Shown in pieces: positions 1-18,852 of a stretch of 18,852 bases of DNA. Origin of the DNA: a virus. The notes beneath the pieces were generated by a model. That model saw nothing but the letters and a program-made list of their open reading frames with translations. It was not told where the DNA came from and searched no databases. The translations under genes and the position numbers were made by a program. How positions within the stretch are numbered: the stretch's first letter is position 1; every line of letters starts with the position of its first letter. The stretch lies in IMG/VR virus record IMGVR_UViG_3300045988_060630, positions 1 through 18,852 of that record, one strand, 5' to 3'.

Positions 1-55
1 GCATTTCAAGAAATGCTATAATGGTATCAGAAAGATAAAGAGGTAAGAAAAATGA
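1..55. repeat. Left inverted terminal repeat (perfect 55-bp copy)
   Basis: nt 1-55 are the exact reverse complement of nt 18798-18852, checked base by base. Identity breaks at 56/18797. nt 1-16 (gcatttc-aa-gaaatgc) are themselves a perfect palindrome. Confidence 0.95.
14..22 (+). promoter_or_regulatory. Extended -10 promoter (TGcTATAAT) inside the left ITR
   Basis: TG at 14-15 and TATAAT at 17-22 are a perfect extended -10. A -35 hexamer would lie beyond nt 1. GAGG at 40-43 sits 8 nt upstream of the ATG at 52. Confidence 0.6.
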
Positions 56-261
56 TTACAGAACAAAAGCTAAAAGATACACTTATGGGAATCTGGGAAA
101 CTGAATTTAGAGAGGAACAAACGTTTGAAGAGTTCGCTGATGGGTATGACTTTTGGATTGATAAAGAGGGTTATATCTTAGTAGAGGGTCGTGGTATGAA
201 ACCACTTGACGGTGTTAAGATGGTTGGACATGTTGATAACAATATATTTTGGGCTTATTAA
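52..261 (+). CDS. Hypothetical early protein (69 aa, acidic)
   Basis: ORF with a GAGG SD 8 nt upstream. Its ATG (52-54) lies within the ITR. No recognisable motifs. Confidence 0.7.
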   Translation: MITEQKLKDTLMGIWETEFREEQTFEEFADGYDFWIDKEGYILVEGRGMKPLDGVKMVGHVDNNIFWAY

Positions 262-274
262 GGAGGTAAAGACG

Positions 275-493
275 ATGACAAAAATTCATGTGATGTTTAA
301 ACTATTAAACGGTAATAGATTTATTGATACAATGATGGTTAGACCTGACGAGGGCGCAAAAGATGTAGTTGAATCATATATTTATAAATACAATCAAAGT
401 TGCTATACAATGGGAGAACAATATAAGGGCGAGGATTTGACGGCTAACCGTTTAAAATTTATTGTTTTCACTATTTTAAGCTTTGATAAATAA
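275..493 (+). CDS. Hypothetical early protein (72 aa)
   Basis: The ORF track opens at 206, but the ATG at 275 follows a strong SD (AAGGAGG, 261-267) directly after the stop of the upstream gene. The 206 start would overlap that gene by 56 nt and has no SD. Confidence 0.7.
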   Translation: MTKIHVMFKLLNGNRFIDTMMVRPDEGAKDVVESYIYKYNQSCYTMGEQYKGEDLTANRLKFIVFTILSFDK

Positions 494-551
494 TTTACTT
501 TCTTATTAAGTTTATCACTTTCTTTCTACTTGAAAATGTGATAGACTTAAA

Positions 552-580
552 TAAGAAAATAAATAACCTTTATTTTCTTA
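552..580. promoter_or_regulatory. AT-rich perfect hairpin/operator candidate in the 494-621 intergenic region
   Basis: aagaaaataaa (553-563) and tttattttctt (569-579) are exact reverse complements with a 5-nt loop (taacc). An extended -10-like TGaTAGACT lies upstream at 539-547, and actttctt occurs twice (498-505, 516-523). Confidence 0.3.
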
Positions 581-621
581 AATGTAAAAAGCAAATTTTA
601 AAGAAAGGAGAAAAAGAAAAG

Positions 622-894
622 TTGACTGACACACCTATTAAATGCTCTTTTAACGCTACTCAGGTAACTTTCAATCTTTATAAAAATGAAGATGGAAATG
701 TAACTATCATACCTGAAACAGTGACAATCAACCAACGGAGACAGCTCCCGTATATAGAGCGTTATCTGAAAGAACGTTTTACGAGTTATCTCACTATCGA
801 GGTAGTAGACTATGAATATAAGAGCTTTACGGCTTCTATCCCTTTCGCTACCGCCTTAGAACATGCAGAGGAACAACCAGCGGAAGGGGTGTAG
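622..894 (+). CDS. Hypothetical early protein (about 90 aa; alternative GTG start at 538)
   Basis: The open frame runs 538-894. The TTG at 622 is in frame and has GGAG (607-610) 11 nt upstream. The 538-621 stretch is AT-rich and holds the hairpin and promoter-like signals, so it is probably non-coding. The start is uncertain. Confidence 0.55.
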   Translation: MTDTPIKCSFNATQVTFNLYKNEDGNVTIIPETVTINQRRQLPYIERYLKERFTSYLTIEVVDYEYKSFTASIPFATALEHAEEQPAEGV

Positions 895-897
895 TAA

Positions 898-1590
898 ATG
901 GCTTTAACACCAAAACAAAGGAAGGTACAACGGGACTATTTAACCAGAAAGAAAAGAACGCTACAACGTCAGGGCGCATCTAATGCTGAAATAAAAGCTT
1001 TTATGGGTGGACGGTGGAACTTTTCAGGAATGAGTGACAAGGCGTTAGAACGTGCCTACAACGAGATTAAAAGCAAGGGGCGTACTCAAGTCTTCGGCAA
1101 TCATGTTTATACTAGCGACTATGTAAAAAAAGCTAAAGCATGGTATGGCGATAAATTTTCAGTTGAAAAGCTGACCCAAGGCTTTCGCTCTTCTCAACGC
1201 TCAGACTTGAACCGCTTCCATTCAGCCAAGGAAGTCAAAGAATACCGCTCACAACGTGACAGAGAAGCCAAAGAACGCTATATACAAGCGCTTGAAGAAC
1301 TGCACTACAACACCAGAGAAGCAGGCAACAAGGCGCAAGAAAAAGCCTTTAAGTCTATGGTATCACGCATAAGGCGCATGAGTGCCAGCAACTTTGGCGC
1401 ATTTCTGACGGGTGGGGCGTCTGATAAGGTTTCTTTTGATAATGTTATGGTTTTCGTAGACACAGACGGTAAGGAAACGGCTTTTGAATTTCAGGACAGC
1501 CTAGCCCGTGAAATCCTTGATAATGTAGATAAGTTTTCCAAGCAATTTGTCAGTGACATGAGAAGACGAAAGAAGCGAGGGAAGAAGTGA
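898..1590 (+). CDS. Terminal protein (primer for protein-primed replication)
   Basis: 230-aa basic protein directly upstream of the protein-primed DNA polymerase and translationally coupled to it (GTGA overlap). This is the same arrangement as phi29 gene 3/gene 2 and Cp-1 orf4/orf5. The genome has ITRs. The function is assigned from position and size, not from a motif. Confidence 0.75.
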   Translation: MALTPKQRKVQRDYLTRKKRTLQRQGASNAEIKAFMGGRWNFSGMSDKALERAYNEIKSKGRTQVFGNHVYTSDYVKKAKAWYGDKFSVEKLTQGFRSSQRSDLNRFHSAKEVKEYRSQRDREAKERYIQALEELHYNTREAGNKAQEKAFKSMVSRIRRMSASNFGAFLTGGASDKVSFDNVMVFVDTDGKETAFEFQDSLAREILDNVDKFSKQFVSDMRRRKKRGKK

Positions 1591-3293
1591 CTTGCTACTA
1601 TGCAGGCGACTTTGAAACGACTACCAACGAGGAAGAAACAGAAGTTTGGCTATCTTGTTTCGCAAAAGTCATTGACTATGACAAGCTAGACACATTCAAG
1701 GTAAACACCAGCCTAGAGGATTTTCTGAAATCTCTATATCTGGATTTAGACAAGACCTATGCAGAGACGGGAGAAGATGAATTTATCATATTCTTTCACA
1801 ATCTCAAGTTTGATGGCTCTTTCTTGTTATCTTTCTTTCTGAACAATGATATAGAATGTACTTACTTTATTAACGATATGGGGGTATGGTATTCTATTAC
1901 GCTAGAATTTCCAGACTTTACACTGACTTTTAGAGACTCCCTAAAAATCCTTAATTTCTCAATCGCTACGATGGCTGGACTTTTCAAAATGCCAATCGCA
2001 AAGGGTACAACACCCTTGCTAAAACATAAGCCAGAAGTTATTAAACCAGAATGGATTGACTACATTCATGTAGACGTTGCCATTTTAGCCCGTGGTATCT
2101 TTGCAATGTACTATGAAGAAAATTTCACAAAGTACACATCAGCAAGTGAAGCGCTGACAGAGTTTAAACGGATTTTCAGGAAGTCTAAACGAAAATTCAG
2201 AGACTTTTTCCCAATCCTTGATGAAAAGGTGGACGACTTTTGCCGTAAGGCTTACCGTGGGGGCTGGACGTTCGCAAACCCTAAAACACAGGGGCGAACC
2301 TTAAACCAGCTAATAGACATCTACGACATTAACAGCATGTACCCAGCTACAATGCTACAAAATGCCCTCCCAATCGGTACACCGAAGCGCTACAAAGGGA
2401 AGCCTAAGGAGATAAAGCAAGACCACTACTATATTTACCACATTAAAGCCGATTTTGACTTAAAACGTGGCTACCTCCCAACGATACAAATTAAGCGCAA
2501 ACTTGACGCTTTAAGAATTGGTGTCAGAACTAGCGATTATGTGACCACATCTAAAAATGAGGTTATAGACTTATATCTGACTAATTTTGACCTTGACCTA
2601 TTTTTAAAACATTATGATAGTTCTATCATGTACGTTGAAACACTTGAATTTCAGACAGAATCAGGGCTATTTGATGACTATATCACAACTTACAGATACA
2701 AAAAAGAAAATGCACAAAGCCCAGCAGAGAAGCAAAAAGCTAAAATCATGCTTAATAGCTTATATGGGAAGTTTGGCGCTAAAATCATATCTGTTAAGAA
2801 ACTAGCATATCTGGACGATAAAGATATATTACGCTTTAAAAATGACGATGAAGAAGAAGTGCAACCCGTTTATGCACCCGTTGCGTTATTCGTTACATCT
2901 ATTGCCCGTCACTTTATCATTTCAAACGCTCAAGAAAATTATGATAATTTCTTATATGCTGATACAGACAGCTTGCACTTATTCCATTCTGACAGCCTTG
3001 TCCTTGACATCGACCCGTCAGAGTTCGGCAAGTGGGCGCATGAGGGTAGAGCCGTAAAGGCGAAATATTTACGCTCAAAACTCTACATCGAAGAACTGAT
3101 ACAAGAAGACGGGTCAACGCATTTAGACGTTAAGGGCGCAGGTATGACCCCAGAAATCAAAGAAAAAATCACTTTTGAAAATTTTGTTATCGGGGCAACA
3201 TTTGAGGGTAAAAGGGCAAGTAAACAGATTAAAGGAGGTACTCTAATTTATGAAACAACCTTTAAAATCAGGGAAACAGATTACTTGGTTTGA
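1587..3293 (+). CDS. Protein-primed family-B DNA polymerase (phi29 p2-like)
   Basis: GTG start overlaps the terminal protein stop, with GAGGG upstream. Motifs read from the translation: ExoI DFETTT, ExoII FHNLKFDGSF, ExoIII YIHVDV, YRGGW, motif A DINSMYPA, GYLPTIQIKR, motif B KIMLNSLYGKFG, motif C YADTDS, GKWAHE..KAKYLRSKLY, KGAGM..ITFENF. It is collinear with phi29 polymerase as I recall it. Confidence 0.97.
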   Translation: MTCYYAGDFETTTNEEETEVWLSCFAKVIDYDKLDTFKVNTSLEDFLKSLYLDLDKTYAETGEDEFIIFFHNLKFDGSFLLSFFLNNDIECTYFINDMGVWYSITLEFPDFTLTFRDSLKILNFSIATMAGLFKMPIAKGTTPLLKHKPEVIKPEWIDYIHVDVAILARGIFAMYYEENFTKYTSASEALTEFKRIFRKSKRKFRDFFPILDEKVDDFCRKAYRGGWTFANPKTQGRTLNQLIDIYDINSMYPATMLQNALPIGTPKRYKGKPKEIKQDHYYIYHIKADFDLKRGYLPTIQIKRKLDALRIGVRTSDYVTTSKNEVIDLYLTNFDLDLFLKHYDSSIMYVETLEFQTESGLFDDYITTYRYKKENAQSPAEKQKAKIMLNSLYGKFGAKIISVKKLAYLDDKDILRFKNDDEEEVQPVYAPVALFVTSIARHFIISNAQENYDNFLYADTDSLHLFHSDSLVLDIDPSEFGKWAHEGRAVKAKYLRSKLYIEELIQEDGSTHLDVKGAGMTPEIKEKITFENFVIGATFEGKRASKQIKGGTLIYETTFKIRETDYLV

Positions 3294-3696
3294 TGGCTTT
3301 GTATTGTCGGTTTACCGCTCCTTTTTCAAAAAATTGTTACACACCCAACAGGTTAAAAATAAAAAAGGGTACTACTTTCAGAAATCCAGCAACGCACCCA
3401 AAAACACTATTTTTCTAAAGTCCTATCTAAAAGCACATTATGCCTATGAAGATTTTGACTACATGATGAACCTTTATCAATTTGTTTCACAAGAATTTGA
3501 TAAAATTTCAATCAATGCTTTTTACAATATATGTTGCTATTTAGAAGAAAACAAAATCTACTCTCTTTCTTCTAATGCTCTTTACGATTGTTACGAGAAA
3601 TCAAAGAATCGTCAAAACGATTTAGAAAATCTCAATACAATCATCACACCATTAAAATTTTTAAAATCAACAAACGGAGATAAAACAAATGGCTAA
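3250..3696 (+). CDS. Hypothetical protein (148 aa, basic N-terminus)
   Basis: The ATG at 3250 follows a strong SD (AAAGGAGG, 3231-3238) located inside the 3' end of the polymerase gene, giving a 44-nt overlap. No recognisable motifs. Confidence 0.55.
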   Translation: MKQPLKSGKQITWFDGFVLSVYRSFFKKLLHTQQVKNKKGYYFQKSSNAPKNTIFLKSYLKAHYAYEDFDYMMNLYQFVSQEFDKISINAFYNICCYLEENKIYSLSSNALYDCYEKSKNRQNDLENLNTIITPLKFLKSTNGDKTNG

Positions 3697-4201
3697 AAAA
3701 CAAGCAAAGCATGAAAATTTTGACACAGTTGTAGCACAGGCTACCATCACAGCGACATCTAACAAGTCAGACGGTAAGTATAAGCAGAAAAAAGCGACTA
3801 AAGCCGTGTACCTTGTCCCAGCGACAGAAGAAGACGCTCAAAAGCTGATTGATTTTGGTTTACAACTTTACACACCAGATACAGAAAAAGACTCAGACGC
3901 TCGCCCTTACTTTATTGTTAAGGCAACCGAAAACGTGAAAATTTTCACAAGTGAAACGGACTTTGAAGAAGTCAACTTTGGTGTATCTTATGAAGACGTG
4001 AATCCAGAAACAGGAGAAATCACGGTTAAGAAAACCCCGAACTACAAAACAGAAGAACCCGTACACGTTGCGATTATGTTCGTAGAGGGTGGCGATAATG
4101 GAAATGACTTTTTCCGTCTCAATGCCCTTATGATGGCTGACACATTGACCCTTGAAGAAGTGCAACCCGTGAACCCGTTCGCTGGATTGTTTGGAAAATA
4201 A
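3689..4201 (+). CDS. Hypothetical replication-module protein; possible ssDNA-binding protein
   Basis: 170-aa ORF with GGAG upstream and a K-rich N-terminus, otherwise acidic. It lies next to the polymerase in the early operon. The SSB idea comes only from position, by analogy with phi29 p5. Confidence 0.6.
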   Translation: MAKKQAKHENFDTVVAQATITATSNKSDGKYKQKKATKAVYLVPATEEDAQKLIDFGLQLYTPDTEKDSDARPYFIVKATENVKIFTSETDFEEVNFGVSYEDVNPETGEITVKKTPNYKTEEPVHVAIMFVEGGDNGNDFFRLNALMMADTLTLEEVQPVNPFAGLFGK

Positions 4202-4229
4202 AAAAGAGCCTTCCCAATCGGGAAAGCTC
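4195..4229 (-). terminator. Rho-independent terminator on the minus strand (may also stop + strand readthrough)
   Basis: Stem 4206-4215/4220-4229 (10 bp, one mismatch, loop aatc). On the minus strand it is followed by TTTTTTATTTT (complement of 4195-4205). On the + strand no T-run follows directly. Confidence 0.65.
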
Positions 4230-4348
4230 CAATTATAAAGCGTTTTTCATGGCTTGAAAAGTCAGTTGGTTAGAATGACTCGCACCAGCAAGCACCCCTT
4301 GAGGTGTAACCATCTTGCCAGCACTAGACAAGCCTTGAAAAGCCTTAC
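4199..4348 (-). ncRNA. Candidate packaging RNA (pRNA-like), about 150 nt, minus strand
   Basis: It lies in the largest ORF-free gap of the genome (4202-4422), bracketed by a near-consensus minus-strand promoter (4355-4383) and the minus-strand terminator (4195-4229). Internal complementarity: 4251-4256 with 4329-4334, 4267-4272 with 4307-4312, 4293-4297 with 4302-4306. Its length is close to phi29-family pRNAs. The 5' end is predicted, not observed. Confidence 0.5.
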
Positions 4349-4354
4349 AAGTTT

Positions 4355-4383
4355 ATCATATCATACTTGCTTTATTTTGTCAA
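4355..4383 (-). promoter_or_regulatory. Near-consensus sigma-A promoter reading leftward (TTGACA-17-TGaTATGAT)
   Basis: On the minus strand the -35 TTGACA is the complement of 4378-4383, the spacer is 17 nt, TG is at 4363-4362, and the -10 TATGAT is the complement of 4355-4360. Confidence 0.7.
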
Positions 4384-4395
4384 GTATGATATACT
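4367..4395 (+). promoter_or_regulatory. Promoter for the structural (late) operon, extended -10 type
   Basis: TTGCTT (4367-4372), 17-nt spacer, TG (4387-4388), TATACT (4390-4395), 27 nt upstream of the ATG at 4423. It overlaps the leftward promoter within a 12-bp perfect inverted repeat (4358-4369/4381-4392). Confidence 0.6.
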
Positions 4396-4422
4396 TTGTT
4401 TAAAAATTGAAAGGAGAGGGCT

Positions 4423-4713
4423 ATGACCTCACAAGAATGCCTAGCAGTGCTAGACGCTGCAATGGCAAAAGTCGGAAACGATGAAGAAATTGAGAGCCTA
4501 ACGGCTGACTTGATTGACATCAAGGCTTTTGTCGGAGAAGTTGACACAGTTGTCTCAGTCTTGAATGAAGACGTTGAGCGCCTAAACTTGAAAAACGGTA
4601 ACTTACGTTCAGCTAATAACGAACTTTACCGTCGTTTAGGACAGCAAGATGAAATCATGAAACAAGCACAAGAAGACATGAGCGTAGTATCAGCAATCAA
4701 TGCTGTTATTTAA
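4423..4713 (+). CDS. Putative scaffolding protein (96 aa, acidic, helical)
   Basis: Strong SD (AAAGGAGAGG). It is the first gene of the structural operon, upstream of the capsid gene, and its size and helical/acidic character resemble phi29 gp7. The call rests on position and composition. Confidence 0.55.
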   Translation: MTSQECLAVLDAAMAKVGNDEEIESLTADLIDIKAFVGEVDTVVSVLNEDVERLNLKNGNLRSANNELYRRLGQQDEIMKQAQEDMSVVSAINAVI

Positions 4714-4730
4714 TAGAAAGGAAAAAGAAG

Positions 4731-4955
4731 ATGAAACCATTTTCAAAATCAATTAACTGGTATCCTAACAACGCACTAGACGCACTCAAGGACGAACCAG
4801 AGACAGTCGCAGAAGTTACACCGCCAGCAGTTATGCTTGCTGACACACCAGCGCAGGAAGTTCCAAATTATCCAGCGCAAGCCCCAGCAAGTGAAGTTGA
4901 GGGCGTAGAAATGAATATTGACCACGAAAACATCGTAGAAGAGGGAGAAGAATAA
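4731..4955 (+). CDS. Hypothetical highly acidic Pro/Ala-rich protein (74 aa)
   Basis: I count 16 Asp+Glu against 3 Lys and no Arg. There is a weak AGGA SD, and the stop lies 1 nt before the capsid ATG. Confidence 0.55.
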   Translation: MKPFSKSINWYPNNALDALKDEPETVAEVTPPAVMLADTPAQEVPNYPAQAPASEVEGVEMNIDHENIVEEGEE

Positions 4956-4956
4956 C

Positions 4957-6054
4957 ATGGCTAATAAAATTACCACTTTTTTATCAGGTCAAACGGGCAA
5001 ACAAGTCTCAAACATTGACCTATTGAACTCTATCCGCACCCGTGCCAGTGCTGACTATCAGGCGGATATTCCTGTACTTGAGGGCGCACGCATTAACCAC
5101 GCAACAGTCCCATATCAGGATTTTCAAAAGCATGCCAACGAGTTTTTCACAGCTCTTGTAAACCGCATTGGCTCTACAGTTATTAAAGCCCTTACTTATG
5201 AAAATCCGCTTGCTATTTTCAAGTCTGAAACTTTTGAGTTCGGGGACACCTTGCAAGAAATCTATGTACACCCAGCGGAAAAGAAAACCTATGACGCAAA
5301 ATCAGACGTTTCTCCGTTTAAGTTCGCTGATACAGACATCGAAGTCTTTTATCACACTTTGAACAATGAAAACTACTATGAGCGTACTTTTGAACGTGCT
5401 TGGATTCAGAAAGCCTTTGTTTCTGACATGGCGTTTGATGAGTTTGTGGACAAAATGTTTACATCATTGCTTTCATCCGACACGCTGGACGAGTACCAAG
5501 CGGTTAAAGGCGTACTTGAGAAATCACTTGCAGAAGTCAGCTATACTGACCTTAAAGGCAAGGCTAAGAAAATCACGGTGGCAGGTACGAAGATTGACGA
5601 AAACAAACAAGACTTTGTTGTAGACTTTAACCAGTCCCTAATCAACTTGTCTAAACGTTTCACAATCCCAAGCCGTACAACGTTTAACAATCCAGTAGGC
5701 GTGCCAAACATGACGGCAATCGAAGACCAGTATCTGGTTATCTCCGCAGAATTTTCTACACATCTTGACATGCTTTTGGCTAACGCCTTTAACATGGATA
5801 AAGCCAGCGTACTTGCTCGCACTATCGTAGTAGATGATTTTGAAAAATTCACGGGAGAGGGTGCAAACAATGGACGTAAGCCAGTTGCTTTCCTTATCTC
5901 AGCAAAATCTATCATTAACAAAGACAAGTTGGTACACATGGAAGCAATCCGCAACCCTCGCAACATGACCTATAATTATTTCTATCATCATCACTACATG
6001 ACCAGTCTTTCACTTTTTGAAAACATTCATTTCTGGTATGTTGAGGAAGCCTAA
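4957..6054 (+). CDS. Major capsid (head) protein
   Basis: 365-aa ORF with an AGGGAG SD, between the scaffold-like gene and the portal gene, and followed by a GC-rich terminator, which is typical for the most abundantly expressed late gene. The position matches Cp-1 orf9. Confidence 0.8.
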   Translation: MANKITTFLSGQTGKQVSNIDLLNSIRTRASADYQADIPVLEGARINHATVPYQDFQKHANEFFTALVNRIGSTVIKALTYENPLAIFKSETFEFGDTLQEIYVHPAEKKTYDAKSDVSPFKFADTDIEVFYHTLNNENYYERTFERAWIQKAFVSDMAFDEFVDKMFTSLLSSDTLDEYQAVKGVLEKSLAEVSYTDLKGKAKKITVAGTKIDENKQDFVVDFNQSLINLSKRFTIPSRTTFNNPVGVPNMTAIEDQYLVISAEFSTHLDMLLANAFNMDKASVLARTIVVDDFEKFTGEGANNGRKPVAFLISAKSIINKDKLVHMEAIRNPRNMTYNYFYHHHYMTSLSLFENIHFWYVEEA

Positions 6055-6066
6055 AGGCTGACCAAG

Positions 6067-6093
6067 GGCGGGCAATAGCCCGCCTATTTTATT
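6067..6093 (+). terminator. Rho-independent terminator after the capsid gene
   Basis: 7-bp all-G/C stem ggcgggc (6067-6073) / gcccgcc (6078-6084), loop aata, followed by tattttatt. Confidence 0.8.
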
Positions 6094-6110
6094 AAGTGAA
6101 AGGGGACTAA

Positions 6111-7124
6111 ATGAGTTACAAGAATTACAAGCGACATCTGGGCAAGATTGAGCTAAACAAAGAAACCGTAGAGCGTAACCGTCTAGCCTTTTTTGAGTTT
6201 TATTTCAATTATTTCTACAATATCGTGGTCAACTATTTCACATGGGAGGGTTTGCCTAACGATATTGACGAGTTATTTATAGAGAAAAAGCTGATACAAA
6301 ATGGACATGTGGCTTTCTTTCATGATGACACTTTTGGCTTTATGGCCCAAGGTGGAACAAGAGGGGAACGCTTAAACCATTATGACCAGCCTTTGACCTA
6401 TCAACCCGTCAACGCTTCCAGTATGAACTATTTTAAACAAATGGAAATCGCTTATACTGAAAACGATTTTAGGGTTATTTCAGAACTACACGAAGCCAAT
6501 CCAGACAAGATTAAAAGACCGTGTATTGTGATTCCTAACAATAATTTCTATGAGCCTTACATCGGCTATTTAGAGTTATTTTGTGAGAAATTGGCAGATA
6601 TTGAGCTGACAATTCAGCTAAACAGGAACGCACAAATCACACCGTATTTCATCTTTGCGGACAATACAAACGTGTTATCAATGAAGAATATCTTTAATAA
6701 GATAGCCAATTTTGAACCCGTTGTATATCTGAACAAGCAGAAAGACCAAGACGGACAAGACAGCTTTAAGCAGTTATCTGACTATATACAAGTTTTCAGA
6801 ACGGACGCACCGTTTTTACTTGACAAGTTGCATGATGAAAAGTTACGAGTGATGAACCAGTTGCTGACCTTTATTGGTATCAACAACAACCCAAGCGATA
6901 AAAAAGAGCGTCTGGTAGTTTCCGAAGCTATTTCTAATAATGGGGTTATCTCAGCGAACATTGAAGTAGGCTGGAAGTCAAGGCGAAAATTCGTTGAGCT
7001 TATCAATAAATGCTACGGGCTAGAAATCAGCGTGAAACCAGCGGAGACTATTCAGCAGTTTAACCTTGATAAAGTGGCGCTAGACCTTGCAGAAAAGGAG
7101 GGAACAATCATTGACCCAGAATAA
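6111..7124 (+). CDS. Portal / head-tail connector (upper collar) protein, phi29 gp10-like
   Basis: Collinear motif matches to phi29 gp10 as I recall it: F.WEGLP..I...F.EK.L...G.V.FF.D, QLNRNAQITP (phi29 NQNAQKTP), VFRTDAP...DKL...K, N.L.TF.GI.NN...KKER.V..E. Size is 337 aa against 309 aa. Confidence 0.9.
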   Translation: MSYKNYKRHLGKIELNKETVERNRLAFFEFYFNYFYNIVVNYFTWEGLPNDIDELFIEKKLIQNGHVAFFHDDTFGFMAQGGTRGERLNHYDQPLTYQPVNASSMNYFKQMEIAYTENDFRVISELHEANPDKIKRPCIVIPNNNFYEPYIGYLELFCEKLADIELTIQLNRNAQITPYFIFADNTNVLSMKNIFNKIANFEPVVYLNKQKDQDGQDSFKQLSDYIQVFRTDAPFLLDKLHDEKLRVMNQLLTFIGINNNPSDKKERLVVSEAISNNGVISANIEVGWKSRRKFVELINKCYGLEISVKPAETIQQFNLDKVALDLAEKEGTIIDPE

Positions 7125-7758
7125 CACCACAGCAACGATTGCAACCTTTTTAAAATCCAGATATAGAAATCCCGTGACGGGACGGCTGGATGGCTTGGCA
7201 GTTGATGAAAACGGCGACTTTCTGCACTATAACACAATTATAGACCAGACCTATAACGAGTTATTTAAAGACATGGAGCTAGTCAACGGAGTTTCAGACA
7301 ATTTCAAGAAAGAGTTTTGCAAACATTTCTACAACAGGGAAATCGGACTTGAGACTTTCGCACGCTTCCAGATAGCCCTTGAAGAAGTTCTAAACAACGA
7401 GTGTTTCAATCTGTTTAAATACCTCGCAGAAATCAGGAACAAGGCTATTAAGGACTTAAACCAGTCTATGAATATTGACACGGTAGGCAACCAGAAAGCA
7501 GACGGGCAAGCCTTACAGATAGCGAACACTACACCACAAGAGCGCAAAGAAATTGTATTTACTGAGCGCTACGGGGTTATAGAATACGCTGACAATCTGG
7601 TAGAGAACCACCAGAAAAACAACGCAGACACAAAAAGCAACGTCTCAGGGTGGAGCGGTTCAAGCCTTGCCGAACGCTTACAAAATAATGCTGAACTGAA
7701 AGACATTCAATTTCAGATTTTCAACATTTGTGATAAGCTGTTTTTACAAGTCTTTTAG
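7111..7758 (+). CDS. Putative lower collar / head-tail adaptor protein
   Basis: The track starts at TTG 7087, but the in-frame TTG at 7111 sits 9 nt after a strong SD (AAAGGAGGG, 7094-7102). It lies directly downstream of the portal gene, as phi29 gene 11 does. The function is inferred from position. Confidence 0.5.
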   Translation: MTQNNTTATIATFLKSRYRNPVTGRLDGLAVDENGDFLHYNTIIDQTYNELFKDMELVNGVSDNFKKEFCKHFYNREIGLETFARFQIALEEVLNNECFNLFKYLAEIRNKAIKDLNQSMNIDTVGNQKADGQALQIANTTPQERKEIVFTERYGVIEYADNLVENHQKNNADTKSNVSGWSGSSLAERLQNNAELKDIQFQIFNICDKLFLQVF

Positions 7759-7770
7759 AAAGGGTCATAG

Positions 7771-8355
7771 ATGAAAGATTTATCAAACGCTAAAATACTA
7801 AAATATGATAGTATGTTAGAAGAAATCACGCTTTTCAGCTTTCAGGATTTTGCTTATAGCGATGATGGTTACTATTATATCCAGTCAAATAGCAGACGCT
7901 TGGGCGACCTTGCTAAGTTGTGGATAAAACTAAAGCCTATTTCTTATCATTATGAAAGCATTGAAAATGAAACTTTTTGGACTATCAGAAAGAGCTATCA
8001 GCCATTACAATCAACTAAGGCGCTTCTATTCATTCGCTTTAAGATTGTGGGAGCTTATTATAGTTTTGAAAGGTTGACAAGCAAAAGCAAGCTGAAAGGC
8101 TTTGCTAGAGTGATTGACGACAACAACTATTTCTCACGGATTCCACTTGTGAACGAGGTGGTGCATTGGGATAACGGAGTTATCGTAACCCCTAACTACC
8201 AGATGAACGTCACAGGGCTAAAAGAAACCCGTGTAGAGATTGATGGTCAGCAACTCCTTGAAGATTGGTCAACATTTAAAATCAATGTAACCAATGGTAG
8301 AAAAGGAGTACCTCGCACCATCATGGCAGCAGAAAGAGGACATGAAACATTATGA
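7771..8355 (+). CDS. Hypothetical virion/morphogenesis protein (194 aa)
   Basis: ORF in the structural operon with an AAAGGG SD. Its stop overlaps the next start (ATGA). Confidence 0.7.
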   Translation: MKDLSNAKILKYDSMLEEITLFSFQDFAYSDDGYYYIQSNSRRLGDLAKLWIKLKPISYHYESIENETFWTIRKSYQPLQSTKALLFIRFKIVGAYYSFERLTSKSKLKGFARVIDDNNYFSRIPLVNEVVHWDNGVIVTPNYQMNVTGLKETRVEIDGQQLLEDWSTFKINVTNGRKGVPRTIMAAERGHETL

Positions 8356-8672
8356 TAATTATCAACTTGTCCGAGACAACGGACACGCTACAAATCGAAG
8401 TCATGGGACACGGAGATGATAAAGACCAGTCTTGCGCCCGTGTTTCTACCGTTTGCGATTGTATTTATTTAGGATTTAAAGACCAGCTAGAGAAATACAA
8501 GAAGCACAACGGCTACACACTTTTAATTGCTGATAAGAAAAAGCTAGGACGTAAAGGTATTTTACTTTTGCGCTATCTTGAGTACATCGAAGCATTAAAA
8601 GAACTCTATCCAAACTCAATCAAAATCGAAAACAAAACAAAAGGAGCAAAAGAAGATGGCAAAGACAACTAA
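8352..8672 (+). CDS. Prp-family (DUF464, peptidase C108-like) cysteine protease; probable capsid maturation protease
   Basis: The 106-aa protein aligns by eye with Staphylococcus Prp, also about 106 aa. Shared features: MI.... N-terminus, GH(G/A) with His20, D.SCARVS with Cys28 (Prp: D.VCAGAS), and C-terminal L.L....L..L.EL.YPN.I.I. The position corresponds to Cp-1 orf13, which was experimentally shown to be a protease. Confidence 0.7.
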   Translation: MIIINLSETTDTLQIEVMGHGDDKDQSCARVSTVCDCIYLGFKDQLEKYKKHNGYTLLIADKKKLGRKGILLLRYLEYIEALKELYPNSIKIENKTKGAKEDGKDN

Positions 8673-9621
8673 ACTTGTACGGGGTATTTACTCATGGATT
8701 AAGTTCCAGAAACATCAGGGTATTGAGAGCTTAACTATTGAGGGTAAGCAGGCGCTTGCAGATATTTCTCAAGATAAAAACGGAGACGCTAACCTAGTTT
8801 TAAATGCTGACAAGGACAAAGTGAACACAGTAGCATCAAACGTGCCTTATCTTGCTGTTTCTCATACAACCACAGGGACAGACCCGAACCAAGAGAAAAC
8901 AGCAACTATCAGCCATGACTTGACACAATTTAACCTTGGAAGTGATGGCTTGATTGACGTCTCAAAAACTGAAACATCTATCACACTATACACTACTAAA
9001 ATTACTGAAAAAATCAATGAAGTAGTAAATAGCGCAGTTACAACAAAAGAAACTGAAATCAAAGACTATGTAAATACAACGCTTTCAACAAAAGAAGAAA
9101 CATTGAAAGATTTTGTAAGAGACCAAACAGCGGGAGCGGTTGGGGTATCTCCTACTTATGTAGCTGATGAAATCCGCAAGGTTAAAGAAGAGTTAGAAGC
9201 TGAAATCAATGCACATGCTGGAAGCGGTTCAACTAATCAAGATTTACATTTAGTCCACTGGGCTAAAGGTTCAAGCAGTGGACATAATAGTGCAAAATAT
9301 GCTGTTCATGGCGTTTCAAACCGTGTATTGATAAGCGTTTCAATTTCATATTATGTAGATAATAAAACAGTTATTGAACATCTTTTCGTACCATCTGGAC
9401 AAGTTACTGATTATGTTAAAAACGGTATAGGTATTGAATGTTCTAACGCGTCAGATGGTAATGATTTAACTATTACATTGCCAGTAAAAACTGATAGTTT
9501 CCAAGTTGACCTTATCACTTACGCTTATCCGTTTGGTGGCTTTACAGACGTAAACGCAGACGTGACACCAGACCCATCTTATACGCCAGTCCGTGAAAAC
9601 ACTGCACCAGTGCCACAATAA
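8656..9621 (+). CDS. Putative fibre/appendage structural protein (321 aa)
   Basis: AAAGGAG SD. The central region has 15-residue repeats (TKETEIKDYVNTTLS / TKEETLKDFVRDQTA), which are helical, followed by a beta-rich C-terminal domain. No enzymatic motifs. Confidence 0.6.
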   Translation: MAKTTKLVRGIYSWIKFQKHQGIESLTIEGKQALADISQDKNGDANLVLNADKDKVNTVASNVPYLAVSHTTTGTDPNQEKTATISHDLTQFNLGSDGLIDVSKTETSITLYTTKITEKINEVVNSAVTTKETEIKDYVNTTLSTKEETLKDFVRDQTAGAVGVSPTYVADEIRKVKEELEAEINAHAGSGSTNQDLHLVHWAKGSSSGHNSAKYAVHGVSNRVLISVSISYYVDNKTVIEHLFVPSGQVTDYVKNGIGIECSNASDGNDLTITLPVKTDSFQVDLITYAYPFGGFTDVNADVTPDPSYTPVRENTAPVPQ

Positions 9622-9637
9622 GAAAGGATTTTAACAC

Positions 9638-10414
9638 ATGAATCCAGAAGAATTTAAAGATGAATTTTTCCGAGCTTATCGGGGGCGCTATTCTTCTTAC
9701 TGGGTGGAGCGTTGGGGGCTTATCCCCTCAATCCCTACCAGCTTTGATAATGCCAATTCTATTTACGAGCTTTTGGCTTGGCTACAGCGTGCCTTTAAGC
9801 AACTACTAGATGACTTTGTGGCTTTGGAAAGCGAACTAGAAGATTATAAGAACGCTTTGACAGAATTGTTGGAGCAACTTATTCCCTTACTTATCCGCCG
9901 TTACATGGAAAGCAAGGAAGCGGACGACTGGTTTAACAAAAAAGCAGACATCTACTATAGCAAGATTATCAAGCCTTACATTGACGCAGAGATTGCTAAA
10001 GTCAATAAGAAAATCGCTGAACTTGAAAAGAAAGTAGATGATGAAGTTAAGCGCCTTGATGGACGGATTGACGCTTTAAACGACAAGCTAGAAAAAGAAA
10101 TCAAGAAGCTTGACGACAGAATCACAAAGGAAGTTGAAACCTTAAACAACCGTATCACAGCGGAAAACAACGTGCTCAAGGAGCGAATCGAAGCCCTAGA
10201 AAATGCTAACACAGGTTTGCAAAACGCTTTGCGTAAAATCATTGAAAACCTTGAGGGTTCAGGCGCTTGGACTGGTGGCTTGACTGGTGGATTTAACCAA
10301 GGGCGCAACATCGCAACAGGTAACATCAACGTATTCGGTGGAACACCAGACGGTAACAGCTTTATCCGAACCAACAACGGAAGCACAGAAAACGACCTCG
10401 CTGGAGGTATCTAA
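9638..10414 (+). CDS. Putative coiled-coil tail fibre / collar appendage protein (258 aa)
   Basis: There is a long charged helical segment with 11-residue periodicity (EIKKLDDRITK / EVETLNNRITA / ENNVLKERIEA) and a Gly-rich C-terminus (GSGAWTGGLTGGFNQG...GGTPDG). Confidence 0.6.
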   Translation: MNPEEFKDEFFRAYRGRYSSYWVERWGLIPSIPTSFDNANSIYELLAWLQRAFKQLLDDFVALESELEDYKNALTELLEQLIPLLIRRYMESKEADDWFNKKADIYYSKIIKPYIDAEIAKVNKKIAELEKKVDDEVKRLDGRIDALNDKLEKEIKKLDDRITKEVETLNNRITAENNVLKERIEALENANTGLQNALRKIIENLEGSGAWTGGLTGGFNQGRNIATGNINVFGGTPDGNSFIRTNNGSTENDLAGGI

Positions 10415-15657: not shown

Positions 15658-16051
15658 TATTATGTTAGAAGTTGCTAAAGGCGACTATATCACAATTCTC
15701 TTTGCTTTGATTCTGTTTGACTTTATCACAGGCTTTTTAAAGGCTTGGAAATGGAAAGTGACAGACAGCTGGACAGGGTTAAAAGGGGTTATCAAACATA
15801 CCCTAACGTTCATTTTTTACTACTTTGTAGCGGTATTTTTAACTTATATTCACGCTATGGCAGTCGGTCAGATTTTGCTAGTTATCATTAACTTATACTA
15901 TGCACTTTCAATTATGGAAAATCTCGCTGTTATGGGTGTCTTTATCCCTAAATTTATGACGGCTAGAGTACAGGAAGAATTGCAGAAATACACAGCACAA
16001 CTAGACGCAGGGAAAGACCTGCTAGAAGAATTTAAAGGAGATAAGAATTAA
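15647..16051 (+). CDS. Holin (134 aa, three predicted TM segments, charged C-tail)
   Basis: It lies directly upstream of the endolysin and overlaps it (TAATG). Hydrophobic segments are [34 protein letters not shown] and [25 protein letters not shown]. The tail is acidic/basic. Size and position match the Cp-1 holin. Confidence 0.85.
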
Positions 16052-17076
16052 TGGTTAAAAAGAATGATTTATTTATTGATGTTTCAAGTCACAACGGCTA
16101 CGATATAACAGGTATCTTGGAGCAGATGGGAACAACTAACACGATTGTTAAAATCTCAGAAAGTACGACCTATTTAAACCCTTGCTTGTCTGCTCAAGTG
16201 GAGCAGTCAAACCCTATCGGATTCTATCACTTTGCCCGTTTTGGTGGTGACGTAGCAGAAGCAGAAGCAGAAGCACGCTTTTTCCTTGATAACGTACCTA
16301 CACAAGTTAAATACCTTGTATTGGACTACGAAGACGACCCAAGCGGAGACGCACAGGCAAACACTAACGCCTGCTTGCGCTTTATGCAGATGATTGCAGA
16401 CGCTGGATATAAACCTATTTATTATAGTTATAAACCTTTCACACTTGAAAACGTGGACTATCAGCAGATTTTAGCGCAATTCCCTAATTCTCTATGGATT
16501 GCTGGATATGGCTTAAACGATGGTACAGCTAACTTTGAATATTTCCCAAGCATGGACGGTATACGCTGGTGGCAATACTCTAGCAATCCGTTTGACAAGA
16601 ATATTGTACTATTGGACGATGAAGAAGATAATGTAAGCAGTAAAAACACTATAAAAAACCTTAACACCGTAGCCAACGAGGTCATTCAAGGGCTTTGGGG
16701 CAACGGTCAAGAGCGTTATGACAGCTTGACAAATGCAGGTTATGACCCTCAAGCAGTTCAAGACAAAGTGAATGAAATCTTAAACGCTGGAGAAGTTGCA
16801 GACCTTAACACCGTAGCCAACGAGGTCATTCAAGGGCTTTGGGGCAACGGTCAAGAGCGTTATGACAGCTTGACAAATGCAGGTTATGACCCTCAAGCAG
16901 TTCAAGACAAAGTGAATGAAATCTTAAACGCTGGAGAAGTTACAGACCTTACCACCGTAGCCAACGAAGTCATTCAAGGGCTTTGGGGCAACGGTCAAGA
17001 GCGTTATGACAGCTTGGCAAATGCAGGTTATGACCCTCAAGCAGTTCAAGACAAAGTAAATGAAATACTTTCATAA
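16051..17076 (+). CDS. cpl7: Endolysin: GH25 muramidase plus three CW_7 cell-wall-binding repeats (Cpl-7 type)
   Basis: The N-terminal ~190 aa ([29 protein letters not shown]...YHFARF...LVLDYEDDP...WWQYSS) is the Cpl-1/Cpl-7 GH25 catalytic module as I recall it. The C-terminus has three 48-aa repeats (LNTVANEVIQGLWGNGQERYDSLTNAGYDPQAVQDKVNEIL), the Cpl-7 CW_7 architecture, and is not made of choline-binding repeats. Confidence 0.95.
   Translation: MVKKNDLFIDVSSHNGYDITGILEQMGTTNTIVKISESTTYLNPCLSAQVEQSNPIGFYHFARFGGDVAEAEAEARFFLDNVPTQVKYLVLDYEDDPSGDAQANTNACLRFMQMIADAGYKPIYYSYKPFTLENVDYQQILAQFPNSLWIAGYGLNDGTANFEYFPSMDGIRWWQYSSNPFDKNIVLLDDEEDNVSSKNTIKNLNTVANEVIQGLWGNGQERYDSLTNAGYDPQAVQDKVNEILNAGEVADLNTVANEVIQGLWGNGQERYDSLTNAGYDPQAVQDKVNEILNAGEVTDLTTVANEVIQGLWGNGQERYDSLANAGYDPQAVQDKVNEILS
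16658..17073 (+). repeat. Tandem 144-bp direct repeats (2.9 copies) encoding the CW_7 modules
   Basis: The copies are 16658-16801, 16802-16945 and 16946-17073. By direct comparison, copies 1 and 2 differ at one base (g/a at 16798 vs 16942). Copy 3 has four substitutions and then diverges in its last ~10 nt. Confidence 0.95.
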
Positions 17077-18552: not shown

Positions 18553-18801
18553 TTAATCATTGATATAAGCAACAAGAGCGTAAGCGTCAAGCCAATTATC
18601 AATAGAACCGCTACGAGCCAATAAATGATAGATATGTTCTGGTGTTTTACCTTTATTTAATTCAAAAAATTGTTTTAAAACGTTTGGTGTAACACTTGCC
18701 AAGGCTAACAAAACTCTTGGCGATTGGCTATCAAGTGGATAATCTTTAATAATACCCATTGCAAACTCTTGAAACTCTTTTAATTGTGTCATATATTTCA
18801 T
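18553..18801 (-). CDS. Hypothetical early protein (82 aa); start codon inside the right ITR
   Basis: The ATG (complement of 18799-18801) and the GAGG SD are ITR-encoded and identical to those of the leftmost gene. Confidence 0.7.
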   Translation of the reverse strand: MKYMTQLKEFQEFAMGIIKDYPLDSQSPRVLLALASVTPNVLKQFFELNKGKTPEHIYHLLARSGSIDNWLDAYALVAYIND

Positions 18802-18852
18802 TTTTCTTACCTCTTTATCTTTCTGATACCATTATAGCATTTCTTGAAATGC
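18798..18852. repeat. Right inverted terminal repeat (perfect 55-bp copy)
   Basis: Reverse complement of nt 1-55. It contains the mirrored promoter, SD and ATG of the rightmost minus-strand ORF. Confidence 0.95.
18831..18839 (-). promoter_or_regulatory. Extended -10 promoter (TGcTATAAT) inside the right ITR
   Basis: Mirror image of 14-22, upstream of the minus-strand ORF that starts at 18801. Confidence 0.6.

Follow-up and report, generated by a model that had tools for sequence, protein, structure and literature searches.

Truncation of the inverted terminal repeat and its early promoter at the ends of a Cepunavirus-like metagenome contig

Signals and genes at the two ends of the window

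The window analysed here is the whole 18,852-nt stretch of IMG/VR record IMGVR_UViG_3300045988_060630. Its first 55 nt (1-55, + strand) return as an exact inverted repeat in its last 55 nt (18798-18852, - strand), and the two copies are the inner 55 nt of a left and a right inverted terminal repeat (ITR). A first-pass annotation had reported identical expression signals at both ends, and direct reading together with a repeat finder confirmed them: an extended -10 element, TGcTATAAT, at 14-22 (+), GAGG at 40-43 and ATG at 52-54. The -10 hexamer TATAAT (17-22; mirror 18831-18836) is of the sigma-A/sigma-70 type, and TGc at 14-16 lies directly upstream of it, as is characteristic of extended -10 promoters. 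The left element, homologous to Cp-1 PE1, aligns with the annotated -10 signals of phages Cp-1 and Cp-7, and its mirror (18831-18839, -) corresponds to Cp-1 PE4. GAGG forms part of a Shine-Dalgarno sequence, AAGAGGT, at 38-44 (+), 8 nt before the ATG, with its mirror read directly at 18809-18815 (-; GAGG 18810-18813). The surrounding Shine-Dalgarno region, AAAGAGGTAA, is conserved among relatives. The mirror start codon is at 18799-18801 (-).

The window begins with G-C-A, as had been noted. Positions 1-16 (+; mirror 18837-18852) were previously described as a perfect palindrome; they do hold an inverted repeat with 7-nt arms, GCATTTC-aa-GAAATGC, but its 2-nt centre is not palindromic. These positions make up 16 of the 17 bp of a promoter spacer.

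Each start codon opens an early ORF. The first left-end ORF (52-261, +; 69 aa) has its first 4 nt (ATGA) inside the ITR, and an identical protein is encoded on 4 other contigs. The first right-end ORF (18553-18801, -; 82 aa) is homologous to Cp-7 ORF28 and matches phrog_16094 (E=1.6e-42). No PHROG matched the left ORF, and PHROGs gave no function for either. Unlike the right-end gene, the left one is not homologous to its counterpart in known relatives, orf1 of Cp-1 and Cp-7; the megablast alignments of those phages begin only at window positions 260-485. Its nucleotide sequence matches instead, at 79.7%, a hypothetical gene in Streptococcus phage MissE2 (36.7 kb, host S. mitis), and a relative is present in IMGVR_3300008729_000012. 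The left ORF looks like an exchanged early-gene cassette, placed immediately downstream of the conserved ITR promoter.

Patchy similarity between the two ends past nt 55 had been read as a longer ITR in decay. When left 56-355 was compared with reverse-complemented right 56-355, the best local score was reached by 22 of 300 shuffles, which is chance level, and BLASTP between the two terminal ORF products gave no alignment. A decayed inward ITR was rejected on these two results; the repeat extends outward instead.

Among phage records searched by megablast, the window matched only Streptococcus phages: Cp-7 at 90.4% identity over 94% of the window, and Cp-1 and SOCP at 89.7% over 87-88%. The window is syntenic with Cp-1 and Cp-7 at this high nucleotide identity, as expected of a Cepunavirus. 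The reference records are placed in Salasmaviridae, genus Cepunavirus; a terminal protein and a DNA polymerase are annotated in them, as are mapped early start sites, and the Cp-1 record adds a 236-bp repeat region. Pfam matches were made on L025, a contig that is 100% identical to window 1-10261. Its 230-aa product matches PF26850 Phage_Cp-1_Terminal (window ORF 898-1590) and its 568-aa product matches PF03175 DNA_pol_B_2 (window ORF 1587-3293). By these sequence comparisons the metagenome-assembled genome is classified as a Cp-1/Cp-7-like, pneumococcal-type, protein-primed Cepunavirus, a new one from a human oral metagenome and roughly 90% identical to those known. An Rfam scan of the whole window at gathering thresholds returned 0 matches, and hence no pRNA or other known RNA.

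The endolysin ORF (16051-17076) contains, at 16658-17066, 2.8 tandem copies of a 144-bp unit with 98% identity. This endolysin looks to be of the Cpl-7 type and not of the choline-binding Cpl-1 type. On L026, another contig of the same phage, the endolysin carries PF01183 and PF08230 (CW_7) and has 293 aa versus 341 aa in the window, one 48-aa repeat fewer. The length difference is either real copy-number variation or repeat collapse in assembly.

The repeat and the promoter beyond the window

Both ends of the window were compared with both ends of Cp-1, Cp-7 and SOCP, and window nt 1 aligned to nt 323 of each. The partner of window nt 18852 is nt 19419 in Cp-7 (genome 19741 nt) and nt 19021 in Cp-1 (genome 19343 nt); the complete genomes of Cp-7 and Cp-1 therefore run 322 nt past the window. 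Just upstream of the nt-323 position, all six reference ends read AAAACACTTGACAA, which supplies the -35 hexamer placed at 316-321 in the Cp-1 record.

Assemblies of the same phage were located by look-up of the exact terminal ORF products. Three of them pass the window's ends and demonstrate that it is truncated. L025, an ENA human oral metagenome contig (k127), starts 84 nt further out on the left. On the right, L026 (k119), which is 99.9-100% identical to the window's right half, passes nt 18852 by 64 nt, and L027 (k127), 100% identical to the window, passes it by 71 nt. The left and right outward flanks are identical, so the inverted repeat continues outward; the flank reads ...AAATGCTATAATGGTTATAG...AAAAACACTTGACAA and then runs directly into GCATTTC... 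at window nt 1. From these sister contigs the ITR is at least 126-139 nt long, of which the window holds the inner 55 nt. Searched in JGI metagenomes, an exact 65-mer retrieved no contig of this phage, and a 31-mer retrieved only relatives at greater distance.

A promoter scan of the window alone returned nothing at nt 1-55. In the extended contigs CACTTGACAA stands directly before window nt 1, and the same bases are found immediately upstream in Cp-1, Cp-7 and SOCP and before the motif in every retrieved relative with at least 7 nt of upstream sequence. L025 reads TTGACA-A-GCATTTCAAGAAATGC-TATAAT, and a scan of this contig scored positions 78-106 as TTGACA-17-TATAAT with 12/12 consensus bases plus TG. 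TTGACA is likewise present in L026 and L027, always outside the window and at the 17-bp spacing of a sigma-A/sigma-70 -35 element. The earlier statement that there is no room for a -35 thus does not hold once the flank is restored, and a -35-independent extended -10 promoter was rejected in view of the perfect TTGACA.

With the -35 occupying the bases 2-7 nt upstream of nt 1, the whole is a sigma-A promoter that matches consensus and has 17 bp between its hexamers. Window 1-55 would then be the downstream part of an ITR-proximal early promoter, comprising the spacer, the TG-extended -10, a leader of ~23 nt, the Shine-Dalgarno sequence and the start codon. The promoter is homologous to Cp-1 PE1/PE2 at the left end and to PE4 at the right end, and early transcription from both ends is presumably the work of host RNA polymerase. 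The Cp-1 record (NC_001825 / Z47794) annotates a -35 at 316-321, a -10 at 339-344 and start sites for PE1 at 351, PE2 at 357 and PE4 at 18993. With Cp-1 nt 323 set equal to window nt 1, PE1 and PE4 coincide by homology with window nt 29 (+) and nt 18824 (-), near which starts had been predicted beforehand; these two positions are our predicted transcription starts.

Farther out, a second, distal tandem promoter lies in the missing part of the ITR, as it does in Cp-1; its extended -10, AAATGCTATAATGG, was seen at L025 1-14. In the extended contigs the distal extended -10 is 94 nt further out than the proximal one. Cp-1 222-250 and 150-177 fall in the region missing from the window. The Cp-1 and Cp-7 annotations also include an outward-facing promoter directed toward the genome end, for which no product is annotated.

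Complete relatives begin 5'-AAAGCAT(G/A)TACTCC. Their exact ITRs measure 236 nt in Cp-1 and SOCP, 347 nt in Cp-7 and 383 nt in IMGVR_3300008729_000012, where the repeat spans both promoters, the Shine-Dalgarno sequence and ATGATTA. Judged against these relatives, the DNA missing from the window is estimated at about 320-323 nt per end and would include the -35, a second upstream promoter, an outward-facing promoter and an AAA-reiterated terminus. The predicted ITR of the window phage is ~378 bp and the predicted genome ~19.5 kb. The longest extension recovered is 84 nt, which leaves out the outermost ~240 nt; both the length that is missing and the AAAGCAT terminus are therefore taken from the relatives by homology.

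In a further public contig, L005 (IMGVR_UViG_3300045988_044762, 1-60), GTGACTGGAGTTCAGACGTGTGCTCTTCCGATCT directly abuts AAAGCATG. We take GTGACTGGAGTTCAGACGTGTGCTCTTCCGATCT to be an Illumina adapter, in which case this IMG/VR contig carries adapter contamination fused directly to AAAGCATGTACTCC. The adapter junction in L005 would mark the physical genome end.

Cp-1 initiates replication opposite the third nucleotide of a 3'-TTT terminal repetition, by stepwise sliding-back (PMC4974454). By homology, the real termini of the window phage would be 5'-AAAGCAT(G/A)TACTCC, with an AAA reiteration suited to that mechanism. ITRs and promoters are not mentioned in the SOCP paper (PMC4334900).

Assembly breakpoints and alternative readings

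The lengths of ITR retained at contig ends were compared among assemblies. Fifty-five nt are kept in the window and also in L028, a scaffold from another assembly that begins at the same base; the k119 contig L026 keeps 119 and the k127 contig L027 keeps 126. The IMG/VR contig L033 shares 96% identity with the window's left 3.3 kb, and its first base is that of window nt 56, exactly where the unique sequence begins. The largest default k of SPAdes is 55. We infer that the long ITRs were collapsed by a de Bruijn-graph assembler run with k=55, which would leave the contig as the unique part of the genome plus one 55-nt k-mer per end, and nt 1 and nt 18852 would for that reason be graph breakpoints. 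The ends behave as expected of such a collapse in that they share an inverted repeat of exactly 55 nt, and sister contigs stop after 55 or 119 nt or at the first unique base; they depart from it in that the k127 contigs retain 139 nt (L025) and 126 rather than 127 nt (L027). As L025 keeps 139 nt, the rule relating retained length to k is imperfect.

The left ends of Cepunavirus-like contigs were also inspected in a protein-anchored set of 49 IMG/VR records (L033-L081). The terminus motif AAGCAT(G/A)TACTCCC occurred within the first 120 nt in 5 of the 49. The other left ends break off at various places, either within the ITR or just inward of it. Truncation of the ITR is the norm for Cepunavirus in metagenome assemblies.

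We consider it very likely that the ITRs were collapsed in assembly, that nt 1 and nt 18852 are breakpoints and that window 1-55 is a cut-off early promoter. Because the contig is truncated, the -35 is absent, the inverted repeat sits at the very end and terminal reiteration is missing. The competing proposal takes the window's ends as the true genome ends, so that a -35-less extended -10 promoter would work ~15 bp from a terminal-protein-capped end and the palindrome would be an origin or recognition element. It has on its side that the window by itself contains no -35, that the TG-extended -10 is perfect and that the two ends are exactly symmetric. Against it, three independent contigs pass the ends and carry TTGACA at 17 bp, all relatives have at least 323 nt outside this point, the window lacks the terminal reiteration required for Cp-1-type priming, and retained repeat length follows assembler k in three of five contigs. 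The true ends lie far outside the window, with an ordinary -35 in the intervening DNA, and we regard this proposal as extremely improbable.

Nor do we give any appreciable credence to the suggestion that the contig has lost just a few nucleotides at its end, such as AAA before GCAT. The likeness of the window's start, GCATTTC, to the relatives' terminus AAAGCATG invites that reading, but it ends after 4 nt (GCATG-TACTCC versus GCATT-TCAAG) and is a coincidence. Moreover, L025 adds at least 84 nt that are homologous to the interior of the Cp-1 ITR and not to its terminus, and complete relatives of 19.1-19.7 kb fit 18852 plus 2 x ~323 nt. The first-pass annotation was right in its second alternative, that bases are missing, but the number is ~323 per end and not a few.

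The inverted repeat at 1-16 had further been proposed as an origin, with transcription and replication initiation competing for the same ~25 bp. With assembly breakpoints at both ends, the promoter lies ~320-350 bp from the termini and consequently would neither overlap the replication origin nor compete with it for DNA. Window nt 1 is not a physical DNA end, being nt 323 of complete relatives, and the reiterated AAA is found at the relatives' termini where the window starts with GCA. Perfect hairpins with 7-nt arms and loops of 0-6 numbered 15 in the window versus 10.7 +/- 3.6 in Markov-1 simulations, so that repeats of this size are not above chance frequency. Because the repeat is ~323 nt from the end and not enriched, a role as terminal, origin or recognition element was rejected.

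The spacers of promoter-like sites were surveyed near the ends of every locus fetched (L001-L081, including the protein-anchored set). These share a loose symmetric A/T pattern, xCATTTT…AAAATGx, though in several the symmetry is weaker or absent. Paired outer changes were seen, GCATTT..AAATGC versus TCATTT..AAATGA, and one such spacer, TCATTTTATAAAATGA, is a perfect palindrome of 16 nt; these observations come from a small sample whose members are not independent.

A promoter spacer is one of the classical places for an operator. An additional idea, compatible with collapse of the ITRs in assembly, is that a regulator from the phage or the host governs the early promoters in the ITR through GCATTT(N4)AAATGC, which would serve as its operator. 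In relatives the 6+6 core is present at the majority of proximal promoters, the distal tandem promoter has weaker forms (CATTT..AAATG, TCATTTTATAAAATGA, ATTTCATGAAAT), and a few spacers swap the outer pair from G..C to T..A. However, a good part of the apparent conservation is ascertainment, because the pattern used to search for relatives required the motif, and GGGTTTTTGAAAATGA and AAATAAATCAAGTATGA are examples of several promoters in the protein-anchored set that are without it. The right arm shares bases with AATG in the extended -10/-16 region, which is constrained anyway, and the proximal and distal promoters are evident duplicates, so their shared symmetry may be by descent. Hairpins of this size occur at chance frequency in the window, as given above, and no candidate regulator was found. 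We judge an operator unlikely. The fuller version, in which the spacer repeat (here 7+2+7) occurs up to four times per genome, distal promoter included, and a phage early protein or host factor co-silences both terminal operons, is likewise unlikely.

What the assembly comparison implies extends past this record. For protein-primed phages whose ITRs are long, metagenome assembly routinely breaks the genome at the inner ITR boundary or close to it, and a short, exact, k-sized 'ITR' at contig ends is therefore an assembler signature. Such contigs are not a safe basis for inferring origins, terminal reiteration or promoters near the ends.

Comparison with known systems

Taken as a whole, the ends of the window combine already known biology with an assembly artefact. 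Tandem consensus early promoters within a long ITR, ~320-350 bp from the ends, have already been described for Cp-1 and Cp-7, and the promoter of the window phage is homologous to those of Cp-1. The window spacer matches that of Cp-1 PE1/PE2/PE4 at 14 of its 16 retained positions (GCATTTTGAGAAATGC in Cp-1, GCATTTCAAGAAATGC in the window); TGcTATAAT, the distance to the Shine-Dalgarno sequence and ATG, and TTGACA at 17 bp are the same. In both phages the promoters lie ~320-350 nt from each end and drive the outermost early genes inward. Besides the unrelated left first gene, two differences were noted. The two spacer substitutions in the window phage lengthen the inverted repeat from 6+6 to 7+7, and its left and right copies are identical through the ATG, whereas the exact ITR of Cp-1 ends at 236 nt and its promoter copies differ slightly.

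The long ITRs of Cepunavirus likewise contain tandem early promoters. In IMGVR_3300008729_000012 the ITR also takes in the Shine-Dalgarno sequence and, on either side, the initial 7 nt of the first ORF, which is the arrangement we infer for the window phage. The window phage differs in that its outer ~240 nt are absent, and its ITR length of ~378 bp is correspondingly an estimate. Origins of the phi29 type have a 6-bp ITR, AAAGTA, and initiate by sliding-back; the termini of the Cepunavirus relatives resemble them in starting with AAAG and in the reiterated 3'-TTT of the template. Window 1-55, in contrast, holds no part of an origin, and the origin would lie ~323 nt outside it.
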